Shown: positions 12,524 through 61,600, counted from the first letter of the stretch. The stretch: 64,000 nt of DNA from Rhizodiscina lignyota (GCA_010015805.1 ML978122.1:2514453-2578452), one strand, 5' to 3'. Made by a program: numbers and translations. The notes: generated by a model from the letters alone, not told the origin.

Positions 12524-13738
12524 ATGTCTGCCCGTTCCTCTCTCGCGCGACTCACTGCTCTGCGTTCGCACTTCCACACCAATCTGCGACCCCAGCTAAG
12601 CTCTTCCACACCAGCTGCACCTACGAGATCGTTCCAGACAGCAGCGCCGACAATGGCACCCCTCCCCAAGACCATGAAGGCCGTCGAAATCGACGAGACT
12701 GGCGGCGTCGAAGTCCTCAAGTACCGCGACGTGCCCGTCCCAGAGCCAAAGGCAGGCCAATTGCTCGTCAAGAACGATGTCGCGGGCATCAATTACATCG
12801 ACACGTGCGCAATCTCCACCCTTCAACCCTCACAACTATGCCTTCTCCTCCATGAGCAAGACTGAGCTGACGCGTTGTGACTCACCAGCTACTTCCGCTC
12901 CGGCCTCTACAAACCGCCCACCTTTCCCTACCGCCTCGGACGCGAGTCCGCCGGCACCGTCATCGCTCTCGGCCCCTCCTCCGCAGACGCGAATTACTAC
13001 GGCATCAAGGAGGGCGACCACGTCATCTGCCTCTCCGAGGCGACATACGCGCAATACTCAGCCGTCCCCGCAGTCAAGACCCTCAAGATACCATCAGGCG
13101 TGAGCAGCGAGACCGCATGCGCAGCGTTCCTGCAGGGCCTCACGGCGCTCACGATGATACGCGAGAGCTATGCGGTGCAGAAGGGCGATTGGATACTGGT
13201 GCATGCGGCGGCGGGAGGGACAGGGCAGTGGCTTGTGAGGTTGTTGCACGCGACGGGGGCGAAGACGATTGCGACGGCGAGCACGGACGAGAAGCTGGCG
13301 CTTGCGAAGAAGCTCGGCGCGGACGTGCTGGTCAACTACTCGAACGAGGACGTCAAGGCGAAGGTCATGGAGGCCACAGGCGGGAAGGGCGTTGCGGCCG
13401 TGTTTGACGGCGTGGGCAAAACGACGTTCGATTTATCGCTGGACTGTCTCGCGCGGAAGGGTACGCTGGCCAGCTTTGGCAATGCCTCGGGCGCAGTGCC
13501 ACCGTTTGCAATTGCACGGCTCAGTGGCAAGAACATCAAGTTGTTAAGGCCGACGCTGTTCCAATATATTGATACGAGGGAAGAGCTGGAGCACTATGTC
13601 AACGAGATGTTTGGACTGATTAAGGAGCACAATTGGGAAGTGCCGGTGCACAAGGTGTATCCGCTGAGTGAAGCAGGAACGGCACAGGAAGATCTCACGG
13701 GCAGGAAGACGACAGGGAAGCTGTTACTGAAACCGTGA
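12524..13738 (+). CDS. ZTA1: NADPH:quinone oxidoreductase (zeta-crystallin/MDR family); intron 12805-12888; second in-frame ATG at 12653
   Basis: GINYIDTYFRSGLY across the splice junction; LVHAAAGGTG, VFDGVGKTTF and GRKTTGKLLL motifs. Confidence 0.9.
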
Positions 13739-13977: not shown

Positions 13978-15880
13978 TTAATCAGTGTCACTTTTAGAAG
14001 GCTCGCCAACTTCTTCATCCTCATCCTCTTCAGTCTTCCACGTCACCGGCTTGATCGGCTTCGGCACCAGCTCGTTTGGGAGATACGTGAAGAAGCTGCA
14101 GTACGTGCGGCTCACGGTGTCGATGTTCCAGAGGCTGGGGCCGTCTTTGTCCTTGAGCGCGAGACGGCGGATCGTGGCCTCCATCTTCATTCCCAGGAAG
14201 ACGCTCTTGAGGATGTGATCTTCGACCCAGAACTCGTAGTCGGGGAACTCGTCCTTCTTGGTCGTGGTTGCAGAGTCCTTCTGAGCTTTTGGTACATCCC
14301 ACGTCTGGAAGTCGGGCACCTCCCACTTCTTGCACCACATGCGCCCCAGCATCTTGGCCTCGATATCCTCCTTGATCTTCGGATCCAGATATACCTCCTC
14401 TGCCCGATGATCACCGAACTCAATCTTGGTAACCTCAAGTCCAAGCGTCTTCTCCTCGGCCACAACCAGCTGTTCGGAAAGGGATTGGCGCAACACGGCC
14501 ATCGGCTTGAACAACTCCTCTGACCCATGCGCCGTAAGTGCCAGCGCCAACAGAGCCTTGGCCTTGTCATCCGACATGCCCGATCCACCTTCCTTACTTC
14601 CCCACACCTCATCACCGTACACGTTCTCGGTCACATCTTGCATCCATGCCGCCGTGCTCTTGACATAAAGGCCCTCGTGATAGCCACCAGTCAACACGGA
14701 ACATGCGACATTGAAGTCACCGGGCAAGTGGAGGCCAGCAGCAAAGACATTGGGCAGCTCCTCTGCAGCGAGGTTGCAGACGGCCTTCGCTGCCTGGATG
14801 CTGGCGATGAGATCGCGCTCGGCAGTCGGAGAGCAGACATCGTGGATGAGAAGATAGTTGTAGAAGTTTGCCAGAATACGAGTCGTGAGCAGATATTCGT
14901 TTGGCGGAACGACGGTTGGGAGGAAAGAGGACCTATGCTAAAGTTATAAAACCGGCTCTTCCAGTAACACTAAATGTGGGGGAAAGAAACATACAAGAAT
15001 CCCTTGACCACGCCTTCGAAGTCCACGACCCACTTGCGCTCGCTTGGATCCTTGTCGTCACCAACTTGATACTTGCTCTTCACCTCCGAAATCTCCAGTG
15101 CCGACATGCCTTCCAAGTCATTCTTGCTGAGTCCAGCGAATTGATTCACCACAGCCTCAATCCCGCCGTACTTCAAGAACGCGCCGAAGATGTTCATGTT
15201 GCTCTGATGAAACTTGCGGCGTCCGGTGTAGCGATGGATGGCGACTTGGATACGAGCGTGAAACGGCTCATCAGGATCGTAGATCTGGCGCTCCTCGGCG
15301 TACTCGGCAGGAGTGACGGGCGGATCAGTGTAGTACTCCTCGAAGCCAGTGGGCTTGAGCATGCCCTTCGTCATTTCCGGCTTGTTTGGGTCACGCTGAG
15401 GGCCCGTCACGATGTTTGGCGGCAACTTTGCCTTCTGCTGGCCACCGAATTGCTTCTCCACGTTTGGAAGCGCGACATAGTCGATGTCACCATCGGGCCA
15501 GTGATACGGGATCTTGCGGCGGATTCTCTTGTCAGGCGTGATCTCCAGGAAGGGAGACTTCTTGAGCGCGGCAACGACCGCGGCGAGAGGCTTGAAGCGC
15601 TTCATCTTGGAAAAGCTCATGACGTGCTTGACGGAGATCGTGTCGTTGGCGTTGCCGTTCATATGCATCCTGAGGTACGAGTCGGTGGCGAGGTTTTCGT
15701 CAGAGAAGTAGAATTCTACCTGTACGTAAAGTTAATATGTCCAAGAGAATTGAGTGTGAATGGAGCGCTTGCCTGACGGCGGATCTCGTCTGCTTCGGGG
15801 TGCTCTTGAGGATCTTGCTCAGCGGTAGCCATGGAAGGCGTCTCGCCTGCAGTGCGTTCAACCTTTGACATTGCAGCCAT
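13978..15880 (-). CDS. arb1: La-motif + Arb1 (Argonaute-binding protein 1) fusion protein; introns 15720-15772 (GC-AG) and 14933-14994
   Basis: Spliced N-terminus IRRQVEFYFSDENL..D.YL..SFSKMK is a La motif; PTGFEEYYTDPPVTPAE..EERQIYD..RIQVAIHRY and NFYNYLLIHDVC match the Arb1 family. Confidence 0.8.
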
Positions 15881-18894: not shown

Positions 18895-20186
18895 TTACGC
18901 CGTGCCCAAGCCATCTAAGAGATCCTCTAATACTTTTGCCATGCTCCTCACTCCCTGTAGAGCGTTTTCATCCCGGCCTTTGCCAGGCGTCCACCTTGCG
19001 TGCGCGAAATCAATTAGCTTGACTGCCGCGAGCTTCGGACCCAGCTCTTCGTCATCGTCGTATTCATCATCCATCTCTTCGTCAATACCGTCTTCTACTT
19101 CGGCAGCTAGCTTTGCCTTTGTAGCTTCGTAAGCCTCCGGGTCGCCCTCGTACACGAACAGTATGCTCGCAGAGTACATCCGACTCTCCTCATTCTCCAG
19201 TGCCTCCTGGATGCCGCGAAGTTCTCCCGTAAAGTAGCTCAACAGCTCTTGTGCCCTTTCTTGCTCATTGTCTTCTGCGTCGGCCCTCGTACGACAGGGC
19301 ATCCCAATGTACTCCCTAAACCCATCCGCCACGTTCTCCGTAATGAAATTCCGCCCATAAAACTTGGTGTACTTCGTGTATCCACTATCCTCGTCATACT
19401 CCCACATATCGGCCTTCTTCTCGCCCTCCTTCAGCACCTCGTCCTTGACCTTCTCCTTCCCGCCCTTCTCCACTTTGGGCCCGCGCCCCCAGACCTTCAT
19501 CCCCGCTATCCTGAACCCCAAACTCCCACTTGTGCTTCGCGCCGCGACATCATCCAGTCGTGCCCTCTTCGCGGCAGGAGCATCGTCGTCCCATAACCGT
19601 GCGCCCAGCTTGACGTCTAGTATATTTGGCTTCGTGAACCCAGCCGCGACGTCCTCCATCACGATGTGTAGGTCTGTGTCGAGCGGCTTGCCATGCAAGC
19701 GGTCCCCTGACTCTGCGACTGCTGTTCCATTCGCCGTCGCCGTCGCACTTGAAGTCGCTGGGTTGCTCGCGGTCGCGCCAGAGGCGGTTACGTCACCGCT
19801 CGAACCGCTGTTGGAAGTCGAGTTCGAGTCCGAAATAGAGCCACCGCGCGTCAGCGTGCCCATGAACGTCGGCATATATTGTGCGAAGGCTGGATGCTCT
19901 GCCGCGGCGGACTCGTAGAAGGAGACTTCGGCTTGGGTGCATGGCTTGATTACTAGAGCGCCGGAAGCGTCTGAGAGGACGCCCTCGCTAAAGAATGACA
20001 CGAAATATCAGCGGCTGACCCAAATATAAGAACTCTAGACTGAAATCGCGTGCCTGACGCGTGCATGACGCGAGAGGGAAGGAGCTTGTGCTCGTGGCGG
20101 AGGCGAGAGTGAACGTACTGTCCTGCGGCGACATTGTTGTATGCTACGAGCGAATCGGCGTCAATTGGCACGGAGGGTTTTGGCAT
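18895..20186 (-). CDS. IPK2: Inositol polyphosphate multikinase; intron 19988-20118
   Basis: AAGHEGV across the junction; PNILDVKLG (PxxxDxKxG), SASILFVY and KLIDFAH motifs. Confidence 0.9.
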
Positions 20187-21702: not shown

Positions 21703-23726
21703 GGTGATGGTGTGACGGTCGTCGGAATTGGCGAGTCCTTTCGGGAGTTCTTAATGGGTTGCGATGGCTATGAAGCGATTCCAGTCGCGTCAAGACGCGT
21801 GTATTGGACGCGTAGATGCCAAATAGTTCCGTGGACTGATGGCTGATGATGAGTTTCGAAGGTTTGACACGTCCGCGGAGAGTGGAGGTTGAAAGGAAGC
21901 TCGTCAGTGGAGAGGTGTAGTGGCCAAAAATCCGCCCACGCGATCCCTCCCAAACGTTCACCCTGCCGAATGTTTTGGGCTGTGGCTGGAGCTCGTTAAA
22001 ATGTCAACTTGGCTGGACCAATTTGGCCAATAGCGTCGGCGTCTCGGGGCCGCTTGTCACCAGAAAAGGTCGGCCAACCTTACGTTCGTTGTGTGCTTGA
22101 ATTGCGAGTTATCCTAGAGTTATTCGCATACTTAGCATTGGTGCTACCTCAATTCGCAACGTCCCAAGAATTACGATTTATCTGTATCGTGCGTGCCAAC
22201 TATCCATGTATAACCTTGGCATTGTAACCAGTCCAGTACATCGAACCGACGGAAAGAGCCGTCTCCACCTGAACTTTAATCCGTTCAAGAGGCCTCGAAG
22301 CTTCATGTGCCACTTTCTTCTCCCATCCTCTATTTGATCCTCCACGAGATATCATCGTGGAAAGGACCATAGTCTCGATTGCTCCGTACTCGTCCTTTGC
22401 TTCGGCGTGCCACATGCAACATACGACCTACCTGAGTACCTAAGTCATTCCGGACTCAGAGACGCAAGGGTTCACGAACTTCTACGACACTACTTGTAGA
22501 CTTTGTACACAAAAAGTTGCTCATGCTCAGATAATGACTGTATCATAATATCAAGATTTGCCTCATCCGGCAGAGCGGAGAGATACTCTAACTACGATAC
22601 CTACCTCCTCAGTTATTCGCTCCGCCCACTCAAAGTTAAGATACTAATGCAACATTAAAAGTCTAGAAGAAATGAAATGCGGAATTTAGACAACAGAGTT
22701 GAAGAAGTAACTGTGAGGCTGTGAAATGTCCATAGTAGAGTTGTGTGTTCAGAAAGAACATTGCGCTGGCTCCGTGGTCATACGTGGTCTTCGGCGTCCC
22801 GTGTAATGCCGATCGACTACGCCGGCTACCAGGCGATAGTTAGTTTGCTTTTATTGAAAACCTTCTTCTCTCAATCGTAATCCGAGTTTCGTCCTGATGC
22901 ATTGCGCTGTGTGGCGTGACCAAAGCTATTATTTGGCCTTTCGGGGCCCTTGAATTAGAAACCCTAGGACCGAAGAAGGTAATGTTAGTTTGCTAGTCTT
23001 TAGAACCTCGTAGGGCATGACATAACATGCACAGTTGCAGCGGCATATGGCAGCATAGCTGAAACTGAAGGATTCTTAAGGCTGTTTCAGAACCACCTTT
23101 TCCGCTTACGGCGCTTCCAAAGTGGAAATTGTAGAGCGTGTCTATAAACAGAAAAGAGAGTATTATAGAGGGCCCCAATAGATGAATTTATCCACCCCTG
23201 TTCGGAGGTGGAAGTTGCCCCATAGAGGTAATTAGGCGAGGTCAAAGTTCGAAAAGAACTTCCAACTGGCCCCTGTTCTGAAGTGGCTAAACTCGCCTTA
23301 CAGCAAGCAAGAAAGAGACGGCTCTCAGAAAAAAACATATCAGAGTATGGGAAAGTGGATAGATGGGCATATGTCGGTGTTCGTCCAGAAGTTCCATCAA
23401 GGGCCATCAGTTACGCGTTGAAGTACTCTACCCCGTGACAGAGTCTAACGAAAGAGACGTTCGGAGTGGCTTGCTCAGTGCTTAAACACATTACCGTCGA
23501 ACATTTCAAGCAGAAGAAGCCCCTTTTGGGTCGTCATGAAAATTGGAGATGAAGTCGTAGATTTCTACGTACGCGTCTCTCCATCGCGGCTGCCGATAAT
23601 CACGACACGGCAATTGCCGCATTGAGCTTCAGCCTTACGACGGCTTACCTCCAAGGAGAACAACAATTAAACCTTAGCACAAAGCTGCATCAATCTTGCA
23701 AGCTCGTGCACTTTGGATGCGATGAA

Positions 23727-26339
23727 ATGAACCCTCCTGACCAAGCCACTACCTCCTTTCGCTCTCCATCCCACAACCCACGAGCCTCCATAAACCGCCG
23801 AATTTCCACCATCTCCACGCTCTCGGCAGCAGAAGCAGGTCGCGATGCCGATGCCACAGGCACCGATCATGACGTCCACGAGGAAATCGATGAGATAAAG
23901 CGCTACGAAGACTTCACTACCATCGATTGGATTCAAGACGCGGCACGCGCTTCTCAGCGACGAAAGGCGCGGCGATATGAACGCGCCGGGTCGTTCGAGC
24001 GCAAGGGACGCTTAGGCTTCAGATGGTGGCTGCGAGATGCGTGGAATGCAGGCATGGCATGGGTGGTGGTGAGCCTCGTGGGCTTCCTTATAGGGCTCGA
24101 TTCGGCTTTCTTGAACATCGTGACGGAGTGGTTGAGCGACGTCAAGTTGGGATATTGCACAAGAGCGTTCTACCTCAATGAGCAGTTCTGCTGTTGGGGT
24201 GCGGAGAATGGGTGTGATGAATGGAGGAGATGGACGGGTCTCTGGCCGCTCAACTACTTTCTATATATCGCGTTTGCGATGCTGTTCGCATTTACGAGCG
24301 CACGGCTGGTCAAGAGCTTTGCTCCATATGCAGCGGGAAGTGGCATAAGTGAGATCAAGTGCATCATTGCAGGATTTGTAATGAAAGGCTTCTTGGGGTT
24401 CACAACGTTGGTTATTAAGAGTATTGGATTGCCGTTATCAATCGCATCAGGACTATCAGTTGGAAAGGAAGGACCAAGTGTGCACTTTGCGGTGTGCATT
24501 GGCAACGTTGTCTCGAGGATGTTTCCAAAATACGAGCGAAACGCGGCGAAGACTCGAGAAATCCTCAGTGCGTCGGCTGCAGCAGGAGTTGCCGTCGCTT
24601 TTGGTTCACCCATTGGCGGAGTGCTCTTCTCGATGGAAGAAATGTCGAACTACTTCCCACTCAAGACACTGTGGCGCAGCTACTTCTGCGCACTGGTAGC
24701 GACAGCGGCACTGGCAATGATGAATCCTTTCCGTACAGGGCAACTTGTCATGTTCTCCGTTAAGTATGACCGGGCATGGCATTTTTTCGAAATCCCTTTC
24801 TATCTCATACTTGGAGTTTTCGGAGGCCTGTACGGTGCCTTTGTCATCAAGTGGCACCTGCGAGTTACGATGTTCAGGAAGAAATATTTGGCCAAGTATC
24901 CCATCTTAGAAGCTACCATTCTGGCAGCATTCACCGCAGTCCTCTGCTACCCCAACATGTTCCTACGAATCGACATGACCGAAGCGATGGAGCACCTCTT
25001 CCTCGAATGCGAAGGCGACGAAGACTACAATGGCATTTGCGAGCGTGCAAATCGCTGGCGCATGGTTACCTCTCTGCTCATTGCTACTGTTATGCGCACT
25101 TTCTTCGTTATCCTTTCTTACGGCTGCAAAGTCCCAGCAGGTATCTTTGTTCCATCCATGGCCATCGGCGCAACTTTTGGGCGCATGGTCGGTATCCTCG
25201 TACAAGCTCTCCATGACGCTTTCCCGAACTCGAAGTACTTTTCTGCGTGTGGAGCTGATGGAGTCTGCATTACACCAGGCACGTACGCGTTCCTGGGAGC
25301 TGGTGCTGCATTAAGTGGCATTATGCACATTACTGTGTCAGTTGTTGTCATCATGTTCGAGCTCACTGGTGCCTTAACGTACATCCTGCCTACCATGATT
25401 GTCGTCGGCGTCGTTAAAGCAATATCTGGTCGTCTGAGCAAGGGAGGCATAGCAGACCGCATGATCTGGTTCAACGGTTTCCCATTCCTGGACTCGAAGG
25501 AAGAACACACATTCAGCGTCGCTGTAACTGCAGCGATGACAACGGATGTCACGGTTTTACCAGCTACTGGCCTCGAAATACGAGATGTCGAGAAGATCAT
25601 GCAAGACAACGAGTTCCAGGGTTATCCCATCGTCGAGGACCTCACTTCCAGAACCTTGATCGGCTATATTGGCCGCACGGAGCTGAAATATGCTATGGAT
25701 CGTGCAAGACGAGATCACACAGTAGGCCCTCGGGCAAAGTGCCACTTCACTCCACCGCGTAGTCTCCCGGCTGTTACACCGTCGGCCACCAGTCCAGCAA
25801 TCACTTTCGACACTGCCGCATCAGCGGGCCAAATGAGTGTCGATTTCTCTCGATTCATAAATCCCACACCAATAGCGGTGCATCCGCAACTCGCTCTCGA
25901 GACAGTGATGGAACTCTTTAAGAAGATGGGACCTCGAGTCATCCTAGTCGAACATCGCGGCAAACTGGTCGGCTTGGTAACTGTGAAAGACTGTCTGAAG
26001 TATCAGTTCAAAGTTGAACACCAAGAGCATGAGAATGAGCGAATTGAAGGGAACGAGCAAAGGGAGAGAGATATCAGCGTCGACGCACGGATATGGGATG
26101 TGATGGAGCGGGTGACGGGATGGCTGAAGGCGAAATGGGATGCTGGATGGGGCCATGCCAGGGGCCGTTTACGCCTCGGCGAGAGCGGTGGTGGCGGTGG
26201 CAGTGCCAGGTATCGAACTGTGGCGACTGATAGTGAAGAGCAGACTCCAGTCAGCCCTATCGCCCCTGCAAACGAAGAGCTGGGGAGAGGAAGACAGGGG
26301 AGAGATGACCACGTTGAACTCGAGCTTGAAGATAGATGA
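23727..26339 (+). CDS. CLC-family chloride channel/antiporter (GEF1-like) with two CBS domains; intronless
   Basis: YEDFTTIDW, GSGISE, GKEGP and GIFVP motifs; many transmembrane segments; C-terminal CBS pair. Confidence 0.93.
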   Translation: MNPPDQATTSFRSPSHNPRASINRRISTISTLSAAEAGRDADATGTDHDVHEEIDEIKRYEDFTTIDWIQDAARASQRRKARRYERAGSFERKGRLGFRWWLRDAWNAGMAWVVVSLVGFLIGLDSAFLNIVTEWLSDVKLGYCTRAFYLNEQFCCWGAENGCDEWRRWTGLWPLNYFLYIAFAMLFAFTSARLVKSFAPYAAGSGISEIKCIIAGFVMKGFLGFTTLVIKSIGLPLSIASGLSVGKEGPSVHFAVCIGNVVSRMFPKYERNAAKTREILSASAAAGVAVAFGSPIGGVLFSMEEMSNYFPLKTLWRSYFCALVATAALAMMNPFRTGQLVMFSVKYDRAWHFFEIPFYLILGVFGGLYGAFVIKWHLRVTMFRKKYLAKYPILEATILAAFTAVLCYPNMFLRIDMTEAMEHLFLECEGDEDYNGICERANRWRMVTSLLIATVMRTFFVILSYGCKVPAGIFVPSMAIGATFGRMVGILVQALHDAFPNSKYFSACGADGVCITPGTYAFLGAGAALSGIMHITVSVVVIMFELTGALTYILPTMIVVGVVKAISGRLSKGGIADRMIWFNGFPFLDSKEEHTFSVAVTAAMTTDVTVLPATGLEIRDVEKIMQDNEFQGYPIVEDLTSRTLIGYIGRTELKYAMDRARRDHTVGPRAKCHFTPPRSLPAVTPSATSPAITFDTAASAGQMSVDFSRFINPTPIAVHPQLALETVMELFKKMGPRVILVEHRGKLVGLVTVKDCLKYQFKVEHQEHENERIEGNEQRERDISVDARIWDVMERVTGWLKAKWDAGWGHARGRLRLGESGGGGGSARYRTVATDSEEQTPVSPIAPANEELGRGRQGRDDHVELELEDR

Positions 26340-35004: not shown

Positions 35005-38000
35005 TCATATGACATTCGACAAGAAAGCCTCATTTCGCCAGAACGTCTCCCAAGCCTTCGGCCACCGCTCCTCTCGCAATCCACGCAGCCACTCCTTGAA
35101 TGGAAGCTGTTCTTCACCAATCCGCATCACGCCATTCTTCACTCCTCGCCAGCCGTTGATCGGGCCTCTGACATAGTTGTGATCCTGACCGCACCAGCTT
35201 CGCCAGTACGAATTCGGCTCGCCGGCATTCATTTTGAGCCGTTTCTAAGAGTATGTTAGGTGTGTTTCTGCGGTAGAGATGGGAGGCTCGGCTTACCTGA
35301 TAGCACTCCTCGTTCAAATCGCAATTGGCACATTGAATGCAAAAGTATATTTTTCCCTTGCTCCAATCGCAGAAGTCCAAATCGCAATCTCCATCACACC
35401 AAAGCCAGCGGTCGTCCTCGGGAACGAGGTCTTCTTTATCGTCTTCCGCGGACACTGTCAGCTTGGCGATTTGGTCTGCCACTTCTGCAGTTGCGTCCGA
35501 GATGGGCGTTTTTTCGTCAACCATAACTGTAGCCGTAATTGTAGTTGTGGTCTCTATTATTGTGGGCTGTTGTTCCTTGGTCGCAGCAGCGGGTTCGGTA
35601 GCGGTGCCGTTGGCTTTCTCCTCGTGACTATCTGTCACGCCATTGGTCTCCGTCTTCTCCTGTCCGTTTACTTTGTTCTTATCATCGTTGATTGTCTTCG
35701 TCTCCTCTTCTTTTGAATCATCATCGTCATCATCATCACCATAATTGACGCTCGTATCCGTTACGGAGAACTGGCAGGACAAAGCGATTTGGGCATCCCT
35801 TCCCAATCCTGGCACACAAGCAAGGACCTTTGCCAAAAGCCGGAAACTGACGTTGTCGTTGTAACCGACAGAGTCTGTCAGACCTTCAACACATGTCTTA
35901 AAAGACCTTTCCAGCATCTGCTGGTACTCAATTGATGAACCCACAGTGCGGGTCATAAGTGCTACCATGACAGCCGTCTGTGATTCGTTCCAGTCATCAT
36001 CATTGGCCTGAGCTGGGCCGTCGTCAGCAGAAGTGCGAAGATTAGGCAGCTTCTTCACTCTCTCATAAAGAGCAAGCTTCTGTTTTGGGTCTGTTGTGCC
36101 GCGGAATTCGGTGAATAGCAGATCGGCGAGTTCAAGGCGAAGGTCCAAGAGTACATCCTCGAGAGAGTCAAGGTCTTCATGCTTAAATTCCATGTTTAGG
36201 ACTTTATCCATCATATCAATGGACTTTTTGTTGTCGTGAGCAGCAATGCGATAGACGGTGGCAAGCTCACACATCGGCACTGCAGCCTTTGCTGAACCAC
36301 GACGTAGACTCTTGACGTAGTCCAAATACCATTTCTCCACGCAGTCAACTCCGCGCTGGCCGGCAAGTCTTGCGTATCGCTCGATATTGTCCACGGATTC
36401 AGCTTCATCCCAGTAGTCATAAGTGAAGAGGTACTCGCAGTACCTGTTCCGCTCAGGCTGTGTCCAGGATTCGAGTAAATCGAAGAACCCAGATGGATCG
36501 TCTTCCCAGTCCTTCACGGATGCGTTATAGTCGAGGTCTTTTCCATTCATGGTATCGACATCCGGCCGAATGTTCCTATGTTCCTGGTATGACTTCAGGG
36601 CATCTTCGGGACGTTTGAGGTCACTCTCGCACAATGCCCTCAATAACGTGATACCCTCCGCGCACTTGACAAGCTCTACGTCGTTCTTCCAGTCCGGTGG
36701 GAGGATGACGAATGCTTCGCCGATGATCTTCATTGCCTCCTCGAAGTAAGGAGCTCCAGGCCCGGGTTCGTCGTCGTCATCATCCTCTTCCTCAGATTTG
36801 CCCTTTCCTTCATCGCCAGTCTTCTCTTCATCGTCACCAGATTCTTCTGAGCCGCTATCCGAACCGCTGTCCGAACCGCTATCTGAACCACTATCCCCTT
36901 CATCTTCATCATCTTTTGGTTTCGTCTTCTCTTGCACGTCTCCGCTGGCGGCTTCCTCCCCATTTTCCTCGTTCTCTTCTTCCTCTTCGGCTTTCTCATT
37001 CAAGGCAAGTCCAATCCTCCGCTTTGACAGTGCCTTAATCCAAAATGTCCTGAAATGGCTCATCGTACTCGTCGGCTCCATCACCAAACCCTTTTCACAG
37101 AACTCGATCGCATCTTCATTCTGTTGTCGCCGCTGCAGGACGTTTGCGATAGCGCGGTAAGCATCCGCAGTCTTCTCGATGTCTGGGAAATATTCGATCA
37201 CTTGGAGCACGTCCTTCTTGGTCGTCCACTCCTTGTCGATATCCGCTCCAGCAAGCAGCAAGGCGTGCTTTGCGAACCAGAATGACCATAAAGCATCATT
37301 GAAGTACTGAGTGTGGAACCAGTTCTCAATATGGCCGTGCGCTAGATCCAAGGTCGCCTTCTGCGGCGCATCAGCGAAGCGGATAGTCCACGCCTTCGTT
37401 GTCTCATCAAGAGTCGGCGACTGCGGTGCGTGCTCGAACCAGATTTTAAATTTGGCAAGATACGACAGATTCTTCTCCAGCGCCTCATAGTCCGGCGGAT
37501 GGAGTTTCTCAAACACAAGAGCCACGTTGTTCTCATTCTCCAGAATGCGTTTCAATCCAGTCAAGGCACGGCAGAATTGCTCGTCCGAAATCTCGTCGAG
37601 GTCAATCTCGAGGAAGTGATGCAGCCAGAAGAAAGTAGCATAATCCCGGAGCCGCGGCTCTTTGCCATCTTGGCCTTTCGCTACAGTTGGATCGCATAGG
37701 ATTGTCACCAGCAACTCGAAGATGATTAAGTGTGCTCTCGCTGGTGGAGTGCGGAGACCATCATCTTCAACGTTGATAGCACGGAAGTATTCTCTCAATG
37801 AGCGCTCTTGGAAAGTCAGAGGCGTCTTGCCGCTTTCATCGATGACTTCCGCAGAGGCTTCCTCGCCGGCATGGTCACTATCTTCTGCCTTCTCATCATC
37901 ATCGGCATTTTCTTCCTCGTCGTCCCGCTCTTGCCCCAACTCCAGGATTCGTGCCGACCGTCCAATCACTTCGTCTTCGATATCAAACGTGGTATCCGGA

Positions 38001-40178
38001 TCAGTCAGTTTGATCAAATCACTTGCCTCGTCGAGAGTCAATTGTCGCTTCGAGAAGGCCAGCATGGCGAACAATGTTCGAAGTGTCTCGTATTGCTTCG
38101 GCGTTCTTCCTTTTTGGCACTCACTCAGCAGGAGACCATACAATGACTCAAGTGAGGTTGGCATGTCCCTTTCAAGGTCTTTAAGGACGGCGGATTCACG
38201 GCCGATAGAGCTGAGACGGCGCAACATGTGTTCGATGTAGAGCATACCGTCTGCACTGCGCATAAGTTTGTCTTCGATTCGCCTTCTCGTGTGTCTGTGG
38301 AACTTTCGGACGCGGGGGAGCTTTCTGACTCGCTCTTCGATAAGCTTTTTCATGTCCTTTGCGATGAGATCCTTGGTAATTTCAATACTTGTTGGAGGTG
38401 TCCCTACAAACAGTGACTTGAGCTCTGGTCGACTAGTGAAGAGGACATGAATGTTAAGTTGCTCTTTGGAGATCTGATTGAACAGCTCCGCCATGACCGC
38501 CTGGTCGTCTTCGTGTGCTTCGTCGACGCCGTCCAGGACGAGATATAAGTGTGCGTCCGATTTTGCCGGGAAACGCTCAGCAAAGAATTGATTCCAGGGT
38601 TCTTCATCTACGCTTTTCGAGATTTCTGCAGCGACAGTCTCGCAATACGCACTGTTCTTCTCGGCAATCTGCAAAACGGAGCAGCGAAGAGCGTTTCGAA
38701 AGTTTCGTAGATCGTCGGAATCCTCTCTGAAGAAGAAGTGGGCCACTGAAGTCTTATCAGTGTGGTGGTTTTTCTCTACGTCAAGCGCGATAGAGTTTGC
38801 AAGATAAGTCTTCCCAGTGCCAGCAGTCCCTGAGAGCCACAAAACACGCTGTTGCCCTTCGATCCAAGCTTTATACTGCTCGTTTTCAAAGATCCACGTT
38901 GCTGTTCCTGGCACAAGAGTGTCGGCAATTTCGTCTCTTTGAAGTTTGACTTTCTTCCGTGCTTCGGCTCCGTCGGAGAAATGTCGTCTGACCTGTGCAA
39001 GGGCACGATGCTTCTTACCAGCTGCATCACCTTTGCTTTTGGCACCCTGCTGTTCTTTCTGCTTCTGCTTGCTGCCATCTTGTCCACCTTGGGGTGCTGA
39101 TTGCTTCAGCAGGGCATCAAGCTTTGAGACGATAATCGCATTATGACTCTCAAACTGCGACTCCAACCTCCCGCCGACTTGAGTTACAGTGGTCTCCATC
39201 GAAGTAATGCTCGTCTGTACAACATCCATGCGCATGTCTATATGCTCCACACCCTCTCGGAGCACGGACATGCCTTGGTTTGTTTCTTTCGATAGTGACT
39301 TGATCTCAGACGTATCGTGTAGAATGTCATCCGTCTTCCCATCCAGCCGTGTCGTTGTCTCCTTGATCTCTATGGCAGTTCGCAGTGTGGCAACTCCGAC
39401 AGCTTCGCCGAGCTTCGATATCGCGTCTTCCATAGCACCGTAAGCGCCTGTAAGGGCTGGGTCTCCTGAACCATCTTTCAGATTGTGGAGCCACTTTCGA
39501 AACCTTCCTTTGCCCTTGTAGTCGGCAGCAATGCCACAGAGTGTAAGCATTGACGCGAAGACTTTCCTGACACATCGTTCGAATGGGCTGAGTTTAGGGG
39601 ATTTCTCCTCCAGCATCGAGATGCGATCGAGAAACGAACCCATTTCGTTGAAGAATCCAGCTACGCGGTCGTAATCCGCCTTCACGTCTTTAAAGGTCTG
39701 AAAGACGTATGTGAAAGCCGTCATCAGCGCAGTACTGGAACACAGGTATTAGTTCATTGCTTTTTGTACGTATGTGCAAGGTCTTCTTACCCGGGAATCG
39801 CGGGTGGAAAGACTGAAGCAGCATCTGCAGCCATCTTGGCTCCATTCACAATCTTCTGGATCACGGCGAGGTTGTTGCCGAAGGCTGATCTCACAGCATC
39901 CTAAACCTCGCGTGTCAGTATGCTGTCGATTCGCCGGAGAGTAGTGAGTTGTGTGAGTATTAAAGTTTAGAACCTACCACTTTGCCTTTGTCATGACGAA
40001 ATGAGCCAAATGACTGTTGCTGCTCCTGTGTGCTCGCGATAGCTTCTTCCATGCTCTTGAACTGGAACTTCGTAAGGTCCAATTTTGTCTTTCCTTTGAA
40101 GTCCTCCAGAGCCTCGTTCCATAGCTGAGCCAGATCCGAACCGTCTTCGAGAGGACCGTCTGGCGGTTGGACGACCAT
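35005..40178 (-). CDS. NLR-like STAND protein: Goodbye-type N-terminus, NACHT, TPR-like repeats, C-terminal Cys-rich (ZZ-like) region; introns 39901-39977, 39735-39790, 35245-35296
   Basis: LWNEALEDF..FRHDKG N-terminus; Walker A GTAGTGKT; Walker B LYLVLDGVDE; LFTSRP; WCDGDC..FCIQCANCD. Confidence 0.85.
36851..36896 (-). repeat. 12-nt tandem repeat encoding (DSGS)x4 inside an acidic linker
   Basis: Direct reading; protein GDSGSDSGSDSGSDSGS. Confidence 0.85.
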
Positions 40179-41119: not shown

Positions 41120-43398
41120 ATGGAGCCGATGGAAGTCGATGCGGCCGCGACGTCGCCTCGCGGGACGAAACGAAAGGCCGATGGAGAACCCATCATTGCT
41201 CCTCGCCGAATTCAGCAGCTATCTGAAGATGTCGTCAATAAGATTGCCGCGGGCGAAATCATTGTTGCTCCAGTTCACGCATTGAAAGAGCTTATCGAGA
41301 ATGCTGTCGATGCAGGCTCCACGGCGCTGGAAATTGTCTTGAAGGAGGGCGGATTAAAACTCCTGCAAATCTCTGATAATGGCTGCGGTATCGACAAAGA
41401 AGACATGGCGATCTTATGCGAGCGTTTCACCACGTCAAAGCTCAAGGCTTTCGAGGACTTGCAATCTATCGGCACATACGGTTTCCGTGGAGAGGCCTTG
41501 GCGAGTATCAGTCATATCGCGCATCTCTCTGTCGCAACGAGGACGAAGGAATCCAGTTGTGCATGGAAAGCGCAGTATTCGGATGGTAAACTGGTGGCAC
41601 CTAAGCCAGGTCAGTCGGCGGAGCCAAAGGCGATCGCAGGACGGCAGGGCACACAGATTACAGTAAGTGTTCTGGCCTCATTAATGCATCCCACGTTTAC
41701 ACATCGCAGGTTGAGGATCTCTTCTATAATGTCCCAACGAGACGGCGAGCCTTTAGATCCGCAAGTGAGGAATACGCAAAAATTCTCGATCTAGTTGGCA
41801 AATACGCCGTTCATTGTGATGGTGTTGGATTCTCCTGCAAAAAGCATGGCGACCCTACCATGGGACTGTCTGTCCCTGCTAATGCCGGTACTATTGATCG
41901 GATCAGGGTTGTTCATGGGAGTGCTGTTGCAAACGAGCTTGTTGAGCTTGCTTGTGAGAGCGAGCGTTGGGGCTTCAAGGCCAAAAGCTGGATCAGCAAC
42001 GCGAATTACAGCGTCAAGCGTACGAGTCTGCTGCTCTTCATCAACCATAGAGCGGTAGATTCGACGCCAATCAAAAAGGCGGTCGAGCAGACATACGCCG
42101 CGTTTCTGCCCAAAGGTGGTCACCCCTTTGTCTATCTCAGCCTGGATATCGATCCAAAGCGAATTGATGTCAATGTACACCCTACGAAACGAGAGGTGCG
42201 ATTCCTCAACGAAGAAGAGATTATCGATATGATATGCGACGAGATTAGATCCAGTCTCGGCAAAGTCGACACAAGCCGGACATTCATGACACAGACACTT
42301 CTCCCGGGCAGCAAGATTCCAGTCATTCGACCGTCTCTCTCTGCCGAAGGCGATGATAGCAGTCCAGATGCAGGCAACAGGAGCGCAGCTGGAACACCCC
42401 GTGCGTCAGCATCAAAAACGAGCGCACAGAAGCCGTATGAGAACAATCTCGTTCGGGTCGACTCTCGCAGTCGCAAGATAACTTCAATGTTACCTCCAAG
42501 CATGCCAAAGGATCCAACTCTGCCTGGCTTAAACGCTCAAGAATCTGCGTCAGATGACATTGAGTACGAATACACAGACCAAGAGCCTACTCTATGCCGC
42601 CTCAGCTCTGTCAAGGAGCTCCGCGCCGAAGTGCGCGATGCCATGCACAATGAGCTCAGCGATGTCTTTGCAAGCCACATCTTCGTTGGCATTGTAGATG
42701 AGCAGCGACGCATAGCTGCCATCCAAGGAGGCGTGAAGCTGTACCTTGTCGACTACGGTATGGTCGCGAACGAATATTTCTACCAAGTCGGACTCACTGA
42801 TTTCGGCAACTTTGGACACATCCGTCTCGACCCCGTACTCAACCTTCAAGAGGTCCTCGAGATAGCAGCAGCGCATGAACAATCCGTGTCTGCCGACGGC
42901 AGTGAGCTGGATTGGCGCGAAGTTCTCTCGTTGGTTAAACAGCAACTCATCGACCGCCGCGAGATGCTTGCGGAGTACTTCTCACTTGAGATCTCTGCTG
43001 AAGGAGAACTTCTGAGTCTTCCACTTCTGACGAAAGGGTATGTCCCCAACATGGCGAAGCTGCCGCGTTTCTTGTTGCGCCTGGGGCCGCATGTCGACTG
43101 GACAGGAGAGAAGGTTTGCTTCCACACCTTTCTGCGGGAGTTGGCAAGCTTCTACACACCTGAGAGTCTGCCGCCAGCATCACCACTCAAACCGCCAAAT
43201 GCTGAGGATGTGATGGAAGTTCAAGAGGAAGAGGAGGACCCGGATATCGTGGCACGGAGACGTCAGCTCAACCGTGCTATTGAGAATCTTCTGTTTCCGG
43301 CTTTCAAGGCTAGGCTTGTCGCTACAAAGGGATTGCTGAAAGGCGTAGTGGAAGTTGCGAACTTGAAGGGCCTGTATCGCGTCTTTGAGCGATGCTGA
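41120..43398 (+). CDS. MLH1: DNA mismatch repair protein MLH1; intron 41663-41709
   Basis: [24 protein letters not shown] and DVNVHPTK motifs; C-terminal FERC. Confidence 0.97.
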
Positions 43399-46113: not shown

Positions 46114-49100
46114 ATGTCGTCAGGGTAAGTTTTGCGACCTCCGAGCACTTTCTTGCGCATTTTGGCTTTCGCGATGGGGTCTGAAACCATTCCACGCTCG
46201 AAACTACCTTCTGAAGAGAGCTACATTGTAAGCTAATATAATTGATTAATTAGATCCCTCAAAGACGTCGTCAAACTCCTAAATAAGACCTTCGCCGAAC
46301 CTCGCGTGCCATTACCGCTTCCCGATGAGATCATTCACACAATCGAAACATATCTCGAGAGCCACAGTACCATTGACGACCATGATTCTCAGCGGCTTCA
46401 AGATGAACTTCTGAACGTCTATCAGAAGTACGTACCGGATGCGCTGGAGAAGCATGGAGCTTTCGTCAATGTGCTGCGTCATCTACGGCCAGTCATCACA
46501 GGCGAGAAGAGATTGGAGGAGTGGTGGACTTTGGTGATAAGGCCCACGATCGACGCTGTTGGACACAAGAGGGATACGATCGAAGATGCAAGAGAATTCT
46601 TATTGGGAATCCTCGTATTTGACGAGGACGAAGATCCGACCGGAGAGCACGCGAGAATCTCAGCGCATTTCACGCAACGGCTCATCGACGCATATCTCGC
46701 CAGGACAAGGATTCCCTTCAGCGATGGAGCCGTGATCTCCCCAGAGGATGATTTCATAGCACATGAATTGGAGACTGTTCTTGTGACGTTCGGTCGCCGC
46801 AAGCCAAAGGTACCCTTTCAGCACCAATATTCGTCCATTCATTCTGAAAATGGTTTTATTAACAGTAGAGTTGCTAGGAATTTCTTCTTGCCGTCGACAA
46901 CATTTTCGTCCGCCCACAATATCGCGCTCAAGCTCTTGGCCTATTAAGTTCTTTTGTGCGCCTGCAGCCGCCTCACCTTCACCTCGTATTACAAACGCCT
47001 CTCATTGATCACCTCCACAAATGCCTGCTGCTAGACGAATCATCGACGGTAGTAGATCTAGCCGTCACGATCTTGATCATGTTTCTACCGCACATTACGA
47101 GCTCTTTGGTTGCTCATCTTCCGACCTTATTCCTTATCTACAGCAGACTGCTCTGCTGGGACGAGCTGCAGATGTCCTTTGACTCTGAGAAGACAGAAGC
47201 ATCATCTGAGAAAGAAGAACTCGGTCAAGGAGGCGAAGAGCCAGCTACGACAGAAACGATGAATTGGAAAGTCTTGGATCAGCATTTCGACAACATCGAA
47301 TCGAGCAACCCTCGTGTCGACTACCTCTTTACATTCTTGTATGGATTGTTCCCCCTCAACCTTATGGCTTTCATCCGAAAGCCTCGAAAATATCTTAAAT
47401 CTGTGCAATACGTTGGCGCAGATGAGTTGGACCTCCGGCAAGACATGATCCGGTCGAGGACGGAGCCACATCGTAGAGTGCACTTGGTGCATCCCAATTT
47501 TTACCTGACCACAGCCGAGGACGAGCTCAACGACAACCGCTGGGTAAAGAGTGACGCGGCCGACATCGTCACTGAGTGCTTGAATCTGTGCTCGACTGTG
47601 TCAGCTTCACTAAACGATCCCAGCCCACCAGGACCACCAGGGCCACCGCCTACTGGCAAGCTCCCACCGATTCCGAAATCAAAGCCACGCAGAGACATCG
47701 CATCTTTTGATCCTAGCCCAACCACAGATGACGAGACCACGCTAAATAACGACATCTCGCCCAGCGATATGCGCTCCAACTATAGCTGGCGCAACACCCA
47801 ATCAACTGCATTGACATCACGTTCGAGCCAAGGACTCCCAGATCTGCCCAGATTACCAAGATCCTCACGCGCAAGCAGCAGCCATGGGGCTTCGAGGTCC
47901 TCTAGAGGCACTTCACCAGGATCGAGGAGCCGTGATCTTGTGCCGGAGAGTCCAGCGTTGAGGCCCCAACTTCCTTCTCATCCCAGTACGGAGATTCCTG
48001 CGATCGATGTCTCAAAGAGATCATCAGCATCGAAAGACGCATCGACCACTTCCCCGCGCCTGGAAAGTTTTGCACAGGCACTTTCTGCTGCACAGTTTCC
48101 CGTTCCTCCCGCAAGATCACCACCACCGTCGCTCAAGGTTGCTTCTCTACAGCGTGAGAATATGCTTCTTCGGAACGATCTCAACTTCGAGCGCTATCTA
48201 AAGCAGCAACACCTCTCGCATATTGGTCAGCTACAGCGGAAACACATTCGTGAAGCTACGGTGGAGGCTGAGACGCAAAACCTCCTCAACACGAATCGGA
48301 CGCTCAAGGCTAAGCTCACAAAGGCAAGTGAGCAATATGCACAGCTGAAGAGGGAGACCACGACCAGCAGGAGTCAATCGAAGAAGTTTGAGTCGGATCT
48401 CACGTTGAAGGTCAGATCCTACAGGGAGGAAGAGAAGCAGTGGCAATCAGAGGGAGAGAACTTGCGCCAGGAGTGCGCAACGCTGAAGAAGGATTGCGAA
48501 AACCTCCGCCGCCTACTAGTCGAAAGCGAGCAGCGGGAGTTCAACATGCAGAACCAGATGCAGATGCGCAATGCTGACCTTGAAGAGCTCAACACCCTGA
48601 AGGCCGAAGTCGAAAACCTACAGACCAAACTCCACGACTTTGAGATTCGGGAATTGCATTTCGAGAAGTCGGAAGAAGACCGCGATTCATTGCAGTCTGA
48701 AGTGCAGTCTCTTAAAATGATGCTGAACAGCAAAGAGGCTGAGCGCGAACGAACACGCCGAAGTTACGAGATCAAGATCAAGGACCTGGAAGCGAAACTG
48801 GACTCCCCGCGTCCTGGATCACAAGTCGCACAAGGAGCACAGCTTCCAGCCTCCGTGCAGCAGATGCTGGATTCCGCGCTCGCGGCCTCACAGTCTCGAT
48901 TCAACCAGCTCAAGAAAGCGCACACAAAGTTACTACACAAGTACACTGAGCTTGAGATGCACTGTCAGGAGCTGGAAGCCAGCAGTGACGTCTTGGGTAC
49001 CCCGTACATTAGCCCGCATGGTAGCAAAGGTTCTCACGATTTCGACCCCCCATCCGGAAGCTCTAATGGCCTGAGCCCGAGCAGTAGCGTTTCTCGCCGC

Positions 49101-49646
49101 CCACACGCGTTTTCTGAGTCACTCCTGGCCGAGGTCGATGAGATCTTCGGCGAGAATGCTTCTCAGTCCTCAGCTGGAACTCAGTTGCCCCTGCAAGGCG
49201 CAAGGGAGCCACCATCGAGGTTCGACAGCTTGAGCAACCGCAATCAGGCCATGGAACGCGCGCGGGAGAAGGAGGCCGAGCTGGCAGCAGGCTACGAGAG
49301 GAACTTGAGCGGCTTCCTCAGCTACAATCCCACTGCGCCGCTATCATCCTCCAGCGCACGAAGCACAGGTAGTGGAGACAGCAAGGGCAGTGGTGGCACG
49401 GTAATTCCCAAGGAGAAAGTGGGGGCGAAGAGCGACATGAGGATCTACGGTCGAGGTAAGTCACTCTCCCTGTCCATGTCTCCCGCACTCCATCCCAAAG
49501 CGTCTTATGGTCCGATAAGGCTGACCGAATGTGGAACAGGCGGCGCGCAGAACATCGGCAAGAGCAAAACTGGCTCCAAAGCAGGTTCAAGCGACCCGAA
49601 GACGGCGAAGAGTGGAGGCTTCAGGGGCATTAGGGGGATTATGTAA
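46114..49646 (+). CDS. TSC1: Hamartin (tuberous sclerosis 1 homologue); introns 46125-46253, 46810-46877, 49456-49539
   Basis: LFTFLYGLFPLN, HPNF and LLRNDLNFERYLKQQHL motifs; long C-terminal coiled coil. Confidence 0.9.
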
Positions 49647-58276: not shown

Positions 58277-58645
58277 CCTGCTGTACTTTGAAGTAGGATG
58301 TTTGTTACACGACTTTGGAGTTGGAAGGAACCCTTGAACCCGCCACGACCTAGAAGGTAATGCCGGGTCGAACCTTAATTGCCCCACGCCACGTGATTGC
58401 GCGTACCTCTAAGGTAGTCGCGTTTGCTTCGAGTATTTAGCCTTTTCTTCAGTCTATCTGGGATGCTAACGTGCAACATCACTCGCCAGTTCACTTAGAG
58501 CAAACATTTCGAGATATTCCGTGCTAATGATCGAAACAGCTCCAATTATCTCCGTTGCTCCGTTGTACATCCAACAACAACCCTCCGCAGCCTAACCAGA
58601 CACTTGCCTTTCCTTACATCGCATTCTCCTCTAGTGGAAGCTACA

Positions 58646-61600
58646 ATGGCTCTTACTGAAGAAGAAGTATACAAGACCGATCTCGATGACGACAACGATG
58701 CTGAACATGACTCTGAAGACGACTCCCCGCAAAGTGCAGTACTTCGCCCAATCTCCGCAAGGAAACGCGAACAGCGCGCGATATTTCAGGACTATGTTAC
58801 CAAAAGAGCACAGAACATCACAAAGGAGGAGATCAAGCAAGAGCTGCAGAATGCAGATGATGAGGAGCTTTCGATCAAAGCTCTGATGGCCAAGCATGAG
58901 AATGAGCAGATCACAACACCAAGGGAATATCAACTGGAACTGTTCGAGCGAGCTAAGCAGCAGAACATCATTGCAGTGCTCGATACTGGTTCTGGGAAAA
59001 CACATATCTCCGTGCTTCTACTCCGTCACGTTATCGACCAAGAGCTGGAAGGCAGAGCTGCCGGAAAGCCACCCAAGATTTCCTTCTTCCTTGTCGACTC
59101 AGTAGCGCTTGTGATGCAGCAACATGCAGTTCTCTCTTGCAACCTGAACCAGAATGTCGACCGTATCCACGGCGCCATGGTACCACAGCTGTGGTCCAGA
59201 GAGAAGTGGGAGGGGTATTTCGCCGAGAACATGGTGCTCGTGTGCACAGCAGAAGTTGTTTGCCATGCCTTGGCTCACTCTTTCATCAACATAGAGCAGA
59301 TCAACCTTCTCATATTCGACGAAGCCCATCATGCAAAAAAGGAGCATCCATATGCCAGGATTATCAGAGATCATTATCTGCCGCGAGAAGACAAGACGAA
59401 ATTGCCAAAGATATTTGGGATGACAGCGTCCCCGGTTGATGTCAAGGCTGATGATATCGGTGGAGCAGCCATGGAGCTGGAGCACCTATTGCAGTGCCGG
59501 ATTGCAACGACAAGTGACCTCTCCTTGCTACAGAAATTCGTTTCCCGCCCTGAGGAAAAAGTTACAGAATACCCGGCCCTCCAAGCGCCTTTCGAAACTC
59601 CATTTCATCAGGAGCTAAAGACCCGTTTCGGAGATCTTAATGTTTTCCGAAAATATTTCTCTACCTCTAAAGTAACTGCGGCCGAACTTGGCCCGTGGGC
59701 ATCTGATTTCTACTGGACTTCCGCTTTGGCAGATGCGCAAGCTAGCAAGAAGAGGCGCAAGATTGAGCGCGATTTCAACAAAACTCCTAGCGAAACAGAG
59801 ACACGTGAACTTGATCAACAACTCGCCAAATTGGAAGAGGCGACCGAGCTCGTCAGAAATCATGACTTTGGTGACCCGACGCCAATTACAGTACAACTGA
59901 GCCCCAAGGTGGTGAAATTGCACGAGTGGCTTCTGCAGTACTTCTCACATCCTTCTTCAACGGCTCGATGTATCGTCTTCGTAGAGCGTCGTCACACTGC
60001 GCATTTACTCTGTGAAATATTCACCCGTATCGGAGGTCAATACCTGAAATCCGGCATGTTGACAGGAACAAACAGGGGCGATGAGATCTCAGTTACCTTC
60101 AGACAGCAGATGATTAGCCTACAAAGGTTCCGAAGTGGCGAGGTCAACTGCCTGTTCGCCACGTCTATTGCCGAAGAGGGCCTCGACATCCCGGCTTGCA
60201 ATCTTGTCGTTCGTTTTGACCTCTACAAGACTATGATTCAGTATATCCAATCCAGGGGTCGTGCTAGACATCGTCATTCTCAGTATCTTCATATGATTGA
60301 ACATGGAAATTCCAATCACGATGTATTGGTGCACAACGTTCTGCAGTCCGAAGTATGAGAATTAACAGCTCTCTAAACGTGTAGTACGCTGACAGATGCA
60401 GAAAATAATGCGCAGATTTTGCGAAACGCTACCAGAAGATCGACGACTGGAAGGCAATGATGACATTGACGAATCACAATTGGGTGCTAACATTGGACGC
60501 ACATATACTGAACCGACGACAGGCGCAAAGCTCACATATCATTCAAGCCTCGCCGTGCTAGCACATTTTGTTTCCTCCTTGGTAAGTTTCAATCTCGCTC
60601 AAACTTGTCTCGACTCATGATTTGCCAGCCATCCGAGGGTGACGAGCCACTGACACCGAATTACGTTGTGACTGCTGAAGCTGGTAACTTCATCTGTGAA
60701 GTTATTCTCCCGGAATGCTCTCCTGTTCAAAGGACCATCGGACGCCCAGAGCGTAGAAAGGCACTGGCAAAACGATCTGCTGCATTCGACCTATGTATCC
60801 AGCTTCGGAAGGGAAAATTCCTTAACCAAAATCTATTGCCAATTTATACGAAGCAGCTGCCGGCGATGCGGAATGCGCAGCTTGCCATGAGTTCCAAGAA
60901 GTCCAGCTCGTATGAGATGCAGAGCAAGCCGAAGCTATGGGAACTTGGGCGTGGAGAAATTCCCAATCGACTTTACTTGACCATCCTTGATGTGTCAGAA
61001 GGCTTGGAACGCCCGCAAAGCCCGATTGGCCTGGTGACGCGATATCCACTCCCAGATATCCCACGATTTCCCCTCTTTCTCACATCGGGAAAGATCACAG
61101 GAACTGTGACTCGAACTCTGGAATTGCCTTTCGAGGTCTCTCCCGAGACTATCAGGAATTTCACAACTTTCACGCACTGTGCATGGCTCGATATCTGGAA
61201 CAAGACGTACGAATTCGATCCCGCGAATATGTCTTACTGGATCGTTCCACTCCTTCCTTCGGCTAAGGGAATGGCCCCAACCATTGCAGATATCACGGCA
61301 GACAAATTGATCGACTGTGAGGCTATCTTGCATGTTGTTGAGACCGATGAGTACATCCGCTGGATGCCAGATATGTCTCACGAATCACTTGAAAACAGGT
61401 TTTTTGTAGATCCATGGGATGGCGGACGAAGATGGTTCTCTTCACGCGTGGTGGAAACCATGAGAGCAGGAGACACATTGCCAGTCGATGCTGAAAGGGA
61501 TTCTGCCAAGGCGCGAGGAATTGAGTGTGTTCTGGATTATAGCAACAGCTTGTGGAAGAAGTCTCGCGCGAAAGTCAAGCACGCATGGGACCCGAACCAG

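Follow-up and report, generated by a model that had tools for sequence, protein, structure and literature searches.

An Arb1 protein with an N-terminal La motif in Rhizodiscina lignyota and related fungi

In the fission yeast Schizosaccharomyces pombe, Arb1 and Arb2 form the ARC complex with Ago1 (Ago1-Arb1-Arb2). Both are reported to be required for loading of the small interfering RNA (siRNA) duplex on Ago1 and to restrain release of the passenger strand, and purified Arb1 is reported to inhibit slicing. This Arb1 presumably has no La motif, consistent with the 403-position Pfam model of the domain. A stretch of 64,000 nucleotides from Rhizodiscina lignyota (GCA_010015805.1 ML978122.1:2514453-2578452; referred to below as the window) contains, on the minus strand at 15880-13978, a gene for an Arb1 protein of a different build. 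The Arb1 domain is shared with S. pombe (PF09692, profile positions 3-397 of 403), but is preceded by about 150 extra N-terminal residues with a La motif. The gene and its product are called La-Arb1 here.

In the La module proteins among the La-related proteins (LARPs), namely genuine La, LARP4, 6 and 7, an RNA recognition motif (RRM) stands right after the La motif, whereas in the window protein it does not. Genuine La (LARP3) shares the fold and the pocket with La-Arb1 (Z 11.8 between the model of a homologue, P0005, and 1zh5_A, which is human La with UUU-OH). However, La-Arb1 has no RRM1 and therefore no La-module clamp for the penultimate nucleotide, and the sequence match between the two is weak. 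In LARP1, as in La-Arb1, the La motif has no adjoining RRM, with the same pocket residues and spacing. The two differ in that the window protein has no DM15 (the LARP1 C-terminal domain) by Pfam, and its La motif is N-terminal and followed by Arb1. The La motif of LARP1 alone is reported to bind RNA 3' ends, with the last two nucleotides held, and a 2'-O-methyl or 3'-phosphate group abolishes binding (PMC11259064). LARP6 shares FYFSDENL, D.[FY]L and SF.K.K with the window La motif but has an RRM, and in human LARP6 the canonical pocket, while fully conserved, is called dormant, RNA being bound via a different surface (PMC12288881). The closest functional analogy is plant HEN1, a small-RNA pathway protein with a La-like domain. 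Its La-motif-containing domain is thought to bind and size, and with a pair of dsRBDs (domains that bind double-stranded RNA) it is described as contributing to binding of the small-RNA duplex at its non-target end (PMC4357707). The likeness to HEN1 is weak (chain 3htx_D, La part, against the P0005 model: Z 5.6, root mean square deviation (rmsd) 3.1 A, 89 residues), and the HEN1 dsRBDs and methyltransferase were not reported in the window protein.

One gene with a La motif and an Arb1 domain

The La-Arb1 gene consists of three exons (Table 1), which when spliced by script give 1788 nucleotides (nt) in frame and a protein of 595 amino acids (aa), without frame breaks in the 595 codons. The start ATG at 15880 is the first in-frame ATG downstream of a stop, and a TAA stop is found at 13980-13978; these codons are exactly the limits given to the gene in an earlier note, made from the sequence alone. 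The La-Arb1 stretch was also found on a single contig, unspliced, in one DNA sequencing run.

One polypeptide bears both domains. The La motif shares an uninterrupted open reading frame (ORF) of 253 codons (14970-15731) with the first 130 residues of Arb1; the fusion is therefore independent of any splice call and not an artefact of the gene model. On the exon-2 ORF alone, Pfam detected La (PF05383; E 1.3e-18, 67.0 bits, cut-off 37.1, profile 4-59 of 59) and Arb1 (PF09692; E 1.5e-48, 166.4 bits, cut-off 25, profile 3-140 of 403), and on the exon-3 ORF the continuation of Arb1 (E 2.3e-56, 192.1 bits, cut-off 25, profile 150-397 of 403). Both families proposed in the earlier note score far above their cut-offs, and the predicted Arb1 domain is full length by Pfam (3-140 and 150-397 of 403). 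On the same two ORFs no RRM family was detected at E <= 1, DM15, methyltransferase and dsRBD families were not reported, and the only other match was a sub-threshold one to internalin. A hidden RRM between La and Arb1 was considered and rejected, as there was no match and the linker of ~45 residues is too short. The counterpart of this linker in the P0005 model has a pLDDT (predicted local distance difference test) of 41-58. Pfam and the model both bear out the initial description of a La motif followed directly by Arb1, without an RRM.

An artefact, be it two adjoining genes wrongly merged or a pseudogene, is very improbable. The donor of intron 1 is a non-canonical GC, which speaks for such an origin, but the single ORF with La and the first 130 Arb1 residues effectively refutes it, and two separate genes were rejected since that ORF crosses both domains. 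The same arrangement is present in 114 of 120 listed proteins, an alignment of 30 homologues has invariant columns in both the La and the Arb1 domain, and the 595 codons are free of frame breaks. The observation of the fusion is correct and far beyond chance.

Sequence matches of the La part in the PDB were LARP6 (E 2e-9), Dictyostelium La (3.9e-9), LARP1 (8.1e-7), LARP7 (1.2e-5), S. pombe Slr1 (5.5e-5) and human La (6.3e-3). This spread over LARP6, La, LARP1, LARP7 and Slr1 indicates no clear single LARP class. Fold comparison was made on an AlphaFold model of P0005 and not on the window's own La sequence (mean pLDDT 79.0, predicted template modelling score (pTM) 0.65, pLDDT 89-96 over the La motif). 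The model matched the La motifs of LARP7 and LARP1 with Z 12.7 and rmsd 2.2 A over 83-84 residues, and its La motif is 31-38% identical to that of LARP1 (38% over 77 Foldseek columns). Judged on this homologue, La-Arb1 is predicted to have the winged-helix La fold.

The putative 3'-end pocket in the product of the predicted GC-AG splicing is formed by Q36, F39, Y40, D49, Y51 and F72. The corresponding human La residues, given in the earlier note as Q20/Y23/Y24/D33/F35/F55, agree with a +1 offset in structural alignments to 1zh5_A and 9nfa_B; relative to human La the pocket of La-Arb1 has two conservative swaps. The spacing of Q36/F39/Y40/D49/Y51 (+3, +4, +13, +15) is that of LARP1 Gln333/Tyr336/Tyr337/Asp346/Phe348 (PMC11259064). 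Across the 30 homologues, positions 40 (Y) and 49 (D) do not vary (30 of 30 each), and position 36 is Q in 29, with one gap that belongs to the deposited model of this gene. The remaining positions are more variable: position 39 is Y in 18, F in 8, H in 3 and W in 1; position 51 is H in 18, Y in 7, F in 4 and N in 1; position 72 is F in 22, W in 6, L in 1 and Y in 1. The six residues that had been aligned by eye as Q/F/Y/D/Y/F are present in this protein and conserved across the 30 homologues. By sequence the La motif is canonical, with a putative 3'-end pocket that is intact in the GC-AG product and conserved in the family.

For the Arb1 domain no relative of solved structure was found by sequence in the PDB, Foldseek gave no match at E <= 0.001, and the ESM Atlas held no usable match for the exon-3 part. 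The exon-3 part was modelled with pLDDT 82.2 and pTM 0.79, and the best result of a wide fold search with this model (Z 5.4) falls within the tool's stated noise. In its beta-rich C-terminal part (residues 157-285, about 14080-14466, minus strand), weak matches to the oligonucleotide/oligosaccharide-binding (OB) fold recur in two aligners below the stated noise (LEF-3 Z 5.3, SSB 5.0, RPA 4.9, PriB 4.7, Rim1 4.6; Foldseek SSBs with probability <= 0.66). A helical part of the P0005 model (166-312) weakly matched integrase N-terminal domains (Z 5.8-6.7); these are leads only.

Intron 1 and the deposited gene models

Intron 1 contains a branch-like TTAAC site 12-13 nt 5' of the acceptor, and across the junction of exon 1 and exon 2 the GC-AG model reads ...HPEADEIRRQ followed by VEFYFSDENLATDSYL.... 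The end of exon 1 is conserved in homologues as HP..DEI.RQ. The closest database protein is P0002, the deposited model of this gene (592 aa; NCBI 'hypothetical protein NA57DRAFT_52839 [Rhizodiscina lignyota]', UniRef 'HTH La-type RNA-binding domain...'). It reads EADEIRQFYF (EIRQFYF) where the GC-AG model reads EADEIRRQVEFYF (EIRRQVEFYF). When the window is spliced with a GT..AG intron at 15777-15716 (62 nt), the product is identical to P0002, so the annotator sidestepped the GC donor and both splice sites were shifted. The junction of intron 2 (GFL/SSF) is identical in the deposited protein.

The motif Q-[VIA]-[ED] precedes the aromatic pair in 29 of 29 other homologues, and P0002 is the sole gapped row in the 30-row alignment. 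A comparison with metagenomes yielded 78 related loci, 53 of them with the La signature. In 29 of these 53 an intron of 45-78 nt separates the Q codon precisely from the V/I codon, with a GT donor in every case (19 distinct), and 17 have no intron at this position; in the remaining 7 there is an AG before the V codon, but either no donor by the pattern used or the locus ends. As the window intron lies at the position common to the 29 loci, it is probably the conserved intron with GC replacing GT. Scored with a La profile of 28 homologues, from which both versions of this gene were left out, the GC-AG product reached 104.2 bits over the whole profile and the deposited GT-AG product 84.7 bits.

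The GC-AG intron 1 predicted in the earlier note is supported over the deposited GT-AG intron by the homologue residues, the shared intron position and the profile score. It had also been suggested that the GC donor could lead gene predictors to truncate the La motif. The deposited model does avoid this donor, but the La motif as a whole is not truncated: the damage is a net loss of 3 residues in La helix 1 and a misplaced pocket Gln. Errors at the same conserved intron were seen in P0024 (Pyrenophora seminiperda), which reads RRQVRLLVPNMSVEYYF and resembles a retained intron, and in P0019 (Aureobasidium sp.), which reads GDEIVEYYF with the K/R-Q-V residues missing. The deposited models of this gene and of some relatives thus appear to be mis-spliced at a conserved intron inside the putative RNA pocket.

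Distribution, phylogeny and genomic neighbourhood

Among 1.84 billion representatives, 507 proteins matched a profile of 30 La-Arb1 proteins at E <= 1e-30. The best 150 of these 507 were classified with local La and Arb1 profiles; since the query profile included La, this list is biased toward La-bearing proteins. It contains 62 representatives with La and Arb1, 35 with at least 75 residues ahead of Arb1 and no La, 24 with fewer than 75 residues ahead of Arb1, and 29 fragments without the start of Arb1. A word-indexed search with the alignment of these 30 proteins gave a list of 120 proteins, and both Pfam domains are present in 114 of them. The novelty that the earlier note saw in the architecture was overstated, since more than 100 database proteins already bear both domains. 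Their names include 'HTH La-type RNA-binding domain-containing protein', 'Argonaute-binding protein 1' and 'La'.

The genera among the listed proteins include Aureobasidium, Elsinoe, Myriangium, Cladosporium, Zymoseptoria, Pseudocercospora, Hortaea, Diplodia, Macrophomina, Phyllosticta, Plenodomus, Pyrenophora, Didymella, Corynespora, Trypethelium, Patellaria and Lophium, all of them Dothideomycetes; the taxonomy check covered Rhizodiscina, Taxawa and Coleophoma. In the named Dothideomycetes, Arb1 normally takes the La-Arb1 form. Two of the listed entries are assigned to plant assemblies (Quercus, Carpinus). Named relatives without La are Xylona, Candelina, Arachnomyces, Cladophialophora, Apiospora, Erysiphe and Geoglossum.

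An unrooted FastTree phylogeny was built from the Arb1 domain only (202 of 216 near-complete rows after 14 near-duplicates were dropped, 420 columns). One branch with 98% local support splits it into 132 and 70 rows. On the larger side 127 proteins bear La and the other 5 have short N-termini, so that complete proteins lacking La are absent; all its named members are from genera of the Dothideomycetes. The smaller side holds 45 without La, 23 with short N-termini and 2 with La. These two La-bearing exceptions are P0115 and Coleophoma cylindrospora (P0031), a Leotiomycete that adjoins the La-less Erysiphe group in the tree. At least three changes of the La state are needed on this tree. Given Coleophoma and P0115, the fusion either predates the Dothideomycetes and was lost repeatedly, or arose more than once; because the tree is unrooted, one old gain with losses and separate gains are indistinguishable on it.

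No description of a La motif combined with Arb1 was found in the searchable part of the literature, and the earlier statement that no functional characterisation is known agrees with this, in that the search found no paper on the combination. Papers that pair 'Arb1' with 'LARP' were set aside: by their titles they concern ribosome or mitochondrial quality control, and their Arb1 was taken to be the unrelated yeast ABC protein. In the main text of a 2020 census of La-related proteins, as far as it was available, the word 'Argonaute' is absent (PMC7928011). La-Arb1 is a conserved, lineage-wide variant of Arb1 that is annotated in databases but apparently undescribed, or equally a new LARP architecture.

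The window also contains a Dicer-like gene (58499-63398, plus strand) with three large ORFs (Table 1), which points to machinery for RNA interference (RNAi) in this genome. It lies ~43 kb from the La-Arb1 gene, and functional clustering of the two is therefore unlikely. On the other side, a dehydrogenase gene is convergent on the La-Arb1 3' end. A database model of 871 aa from Aureobasidium subglaciale (P0021) has ADH domains, La and Arb1; the two neighbouring genes seem to have been merged in it, in which case the neighbourhood is conserved. The other neighbours in Table 1 include a 1543-codon ORF that looks like a fungal NOD-like receptor (NLR)-like protein.

Table 1. Parts of the La-Arb1 gene and other genes in the window
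Feature	Position	Strand	Description
Exon 1	15773..15880	-	36 codons, ATG to ...HPEADEIRRQ; start of predicted La-motif helix 1 and putative pocket Gln Q36
Intron 1	15720..15772	-	53 nt, predicted GC-AG, GCAAGC...TTAAC...ACAG, phase 0 between Q and V codons
Exon 2	14995..15719	-	remaining La motif, linker, first third of Arb1 domain, single open frame
Intron 2	14933..14994	-	62 nt, GT-AG, GTATGT...ATAG, phase 2
Exon 3	13978..14932	-	remainder of Arb1 domain, acidic C-terminal tail, TAA
La motif	15516..15802 (spans intron 1)	-	residues 27-104; putative pocket Q36, F39, Y40, D49, Y51, F72
Linker	15378..15515	-	residues about 105-150, ~45 residues, without family match
Arb1 domain	14065..15374 (spans intron 2)	-	residues about 152-566; Pfam PF09692
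Dicer-like ORF 1	58502-60358	+	ResIII/DEAD/Helicase_C
Dicer-like ORF 2	60515-61753	+	Dicer_dimer
Dicer-like ORF 3	62097-63398	+	Ribonuclease_3 and DSRM_2
Zinc-type dehydrogenase / quinone oxidoreductase	12884-13738	+	ADH_zinc_N
Inositol polyphosphate kinase	18895-20004
CLC channel	23556-26339
NLR-like protein	35114-39745	-	NACHT / NPHP3_N / AAA_16
Mlh1	41608-43398
Hamartin-like	46881-49646

Possible role in Argonaute loading

We infer from the two domain families that La-Arb1 may grip small-RNA 3' ends and load Argonaute. A stand-alone La motif that reads free 3' ends, together with the role of Arb1 in S. pombe, points to an Argonaute loader with a built-in 3'-end clamp. Like the RRM-less La motif of LARP1, the La motif would clamp an RNA that ends in a free 2',3'-OH by its final two or three nucleotides. 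The Arb1 domain would hold Argonaute and, as in S. pombe, restrain slicing and release of the passenger strand. An RNA 3'-end reader would thereby be placed at the Argonaute loading step. By analogy with the La-like domain of HEN1, the likeliest target would be the 3' overhang of a Dicer-made duplex; an alternative would be a U- or A-tailed precursor, and the passenger strand is another candidate. RNA 3'-end reading for Argonaute loading is a plausible function of La-Arb1, and the proposal that it is a dothideomycete form of Arb1 whose N-terminal stand-alone La motif acts as a 3'-end reader at this step is held here with confidence and doubt in about equal measure.

A bolder version appears doubtful. 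It would make La-Arb1 an unrecognised sixth La-related class and a new Argonaute loader. Its La motif would recognise small-RNA duplexes or precursors by their free 3'-OH overhang, or by a U/A tail added without template, and so decide which RNA or strand Argonaute receives. The arrangement would be standard in Dothideomycetes and, given its presence in the Leotiomycete Coleophoma, may go back to the ancestor of a broader group of filamentous ascomycetes, with repeated losses.

Several points weigh against a 3'-end reader at the loading step. The PAZ domain of Argonaute itself binds guide 3' ends, and the gain from a second reader is not evident. The match to the La fold rests on homologue P0005, which is 35% identical overall. 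At the position of LARP1 Phe348, a residue that stacks on the terminal base, 18 of the 30 homologues have His. Among PDB sequences LARP6 matches this La motif best (E 2e-9), and as its pocket is conserved yet described as dormant, conservation of the pocket is no proof of 3'-end binding. Finally, no experiments on Arb1 homologues outside S. pombe were found in the literature.

The protein could instead bind 3' ends as a member of a new LARP class with no part in Argonaute loading, for example protecting or routing tailed mRNAs or RNA polymerase III transcripts, with Arb1 serving some other purpose. This is considered unlikely. It gains from the fact that Arb1 function is known from S. pombe alone, and that the domain, without a solved relative or a convincing fold match (best Z 5.4), has no structural tie to Argonaute; other LARPs are also described as acting on mRNAs, RNA polymerase III transcripts and specialised non-coding RNAs (PMC7928011, PMC11259064). 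Nevertheless, the Pfam Arb1 match extends over nearly the whole profile (3-397 of 403), a Dicer gene is present in the same window, and Arb1 is reported to track the retention of RNAi, both Arb1 and Arb2 being mostly conserved among ascomycetes that retain it (PMC9963178). In addition, the Aspergillus terreus Argonaute model AtAGO3 is said to carry an Arb1 domain, a report unconfirmed here (PMC13194176). The model may represent a fusion, or an adjacent gene may have been merged into it, and either would link Arb1 to Argonaute in Eurotiomycetes; if real, it would be a second, independent fusion linking the two in filamentous ascomycetes. A profile of 17 La-less relatives found no Argonaute-Arb1 fusion among proteins of 1478-4220 residues, a range that a fusion of ~1350-1450 residues would escape.

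Another explanation retains the Argonaute co-factor but with a dormant La pocket: the La motif would bind structured RNA or protein via another surface, or add general RNA affinity. Here too the probability seems low. The Gln, Tyr40 and Asp49 are invariant in the 29 other homologues, which fits continued selection on the pocket, and the La motif of the RRM-less LARP1 is reported to use the same residues for 3' ends (PMC11259064). However, LARP6 conserves the pocket too and is reported to use a non-canonical surface (PMC12288881); it is also the closest solved La motif by sequence, and the frequent His in place of the stacking Phe (18 of 30) is a further point for a dormant pocket.

La-Arb1 adds an architecture that is missing from the 2020 census of La-related proteins, as far as its text was available (PMC7928011). 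The choice of small-RNA duplexes and their hand-over to Argonaute are poorly understood in filamentous fungi, and Arb1 has been studied in fission yeast only. A whole fungal class, with important plant pathogens and the yeast-like, tractable Aureobasidium among its members, carries an Arb1 with a putative 3'-end reader, and from this arises a hypothesis that can be tested by mutation: the state of the 3' end may be a signal for Argonaute loading.

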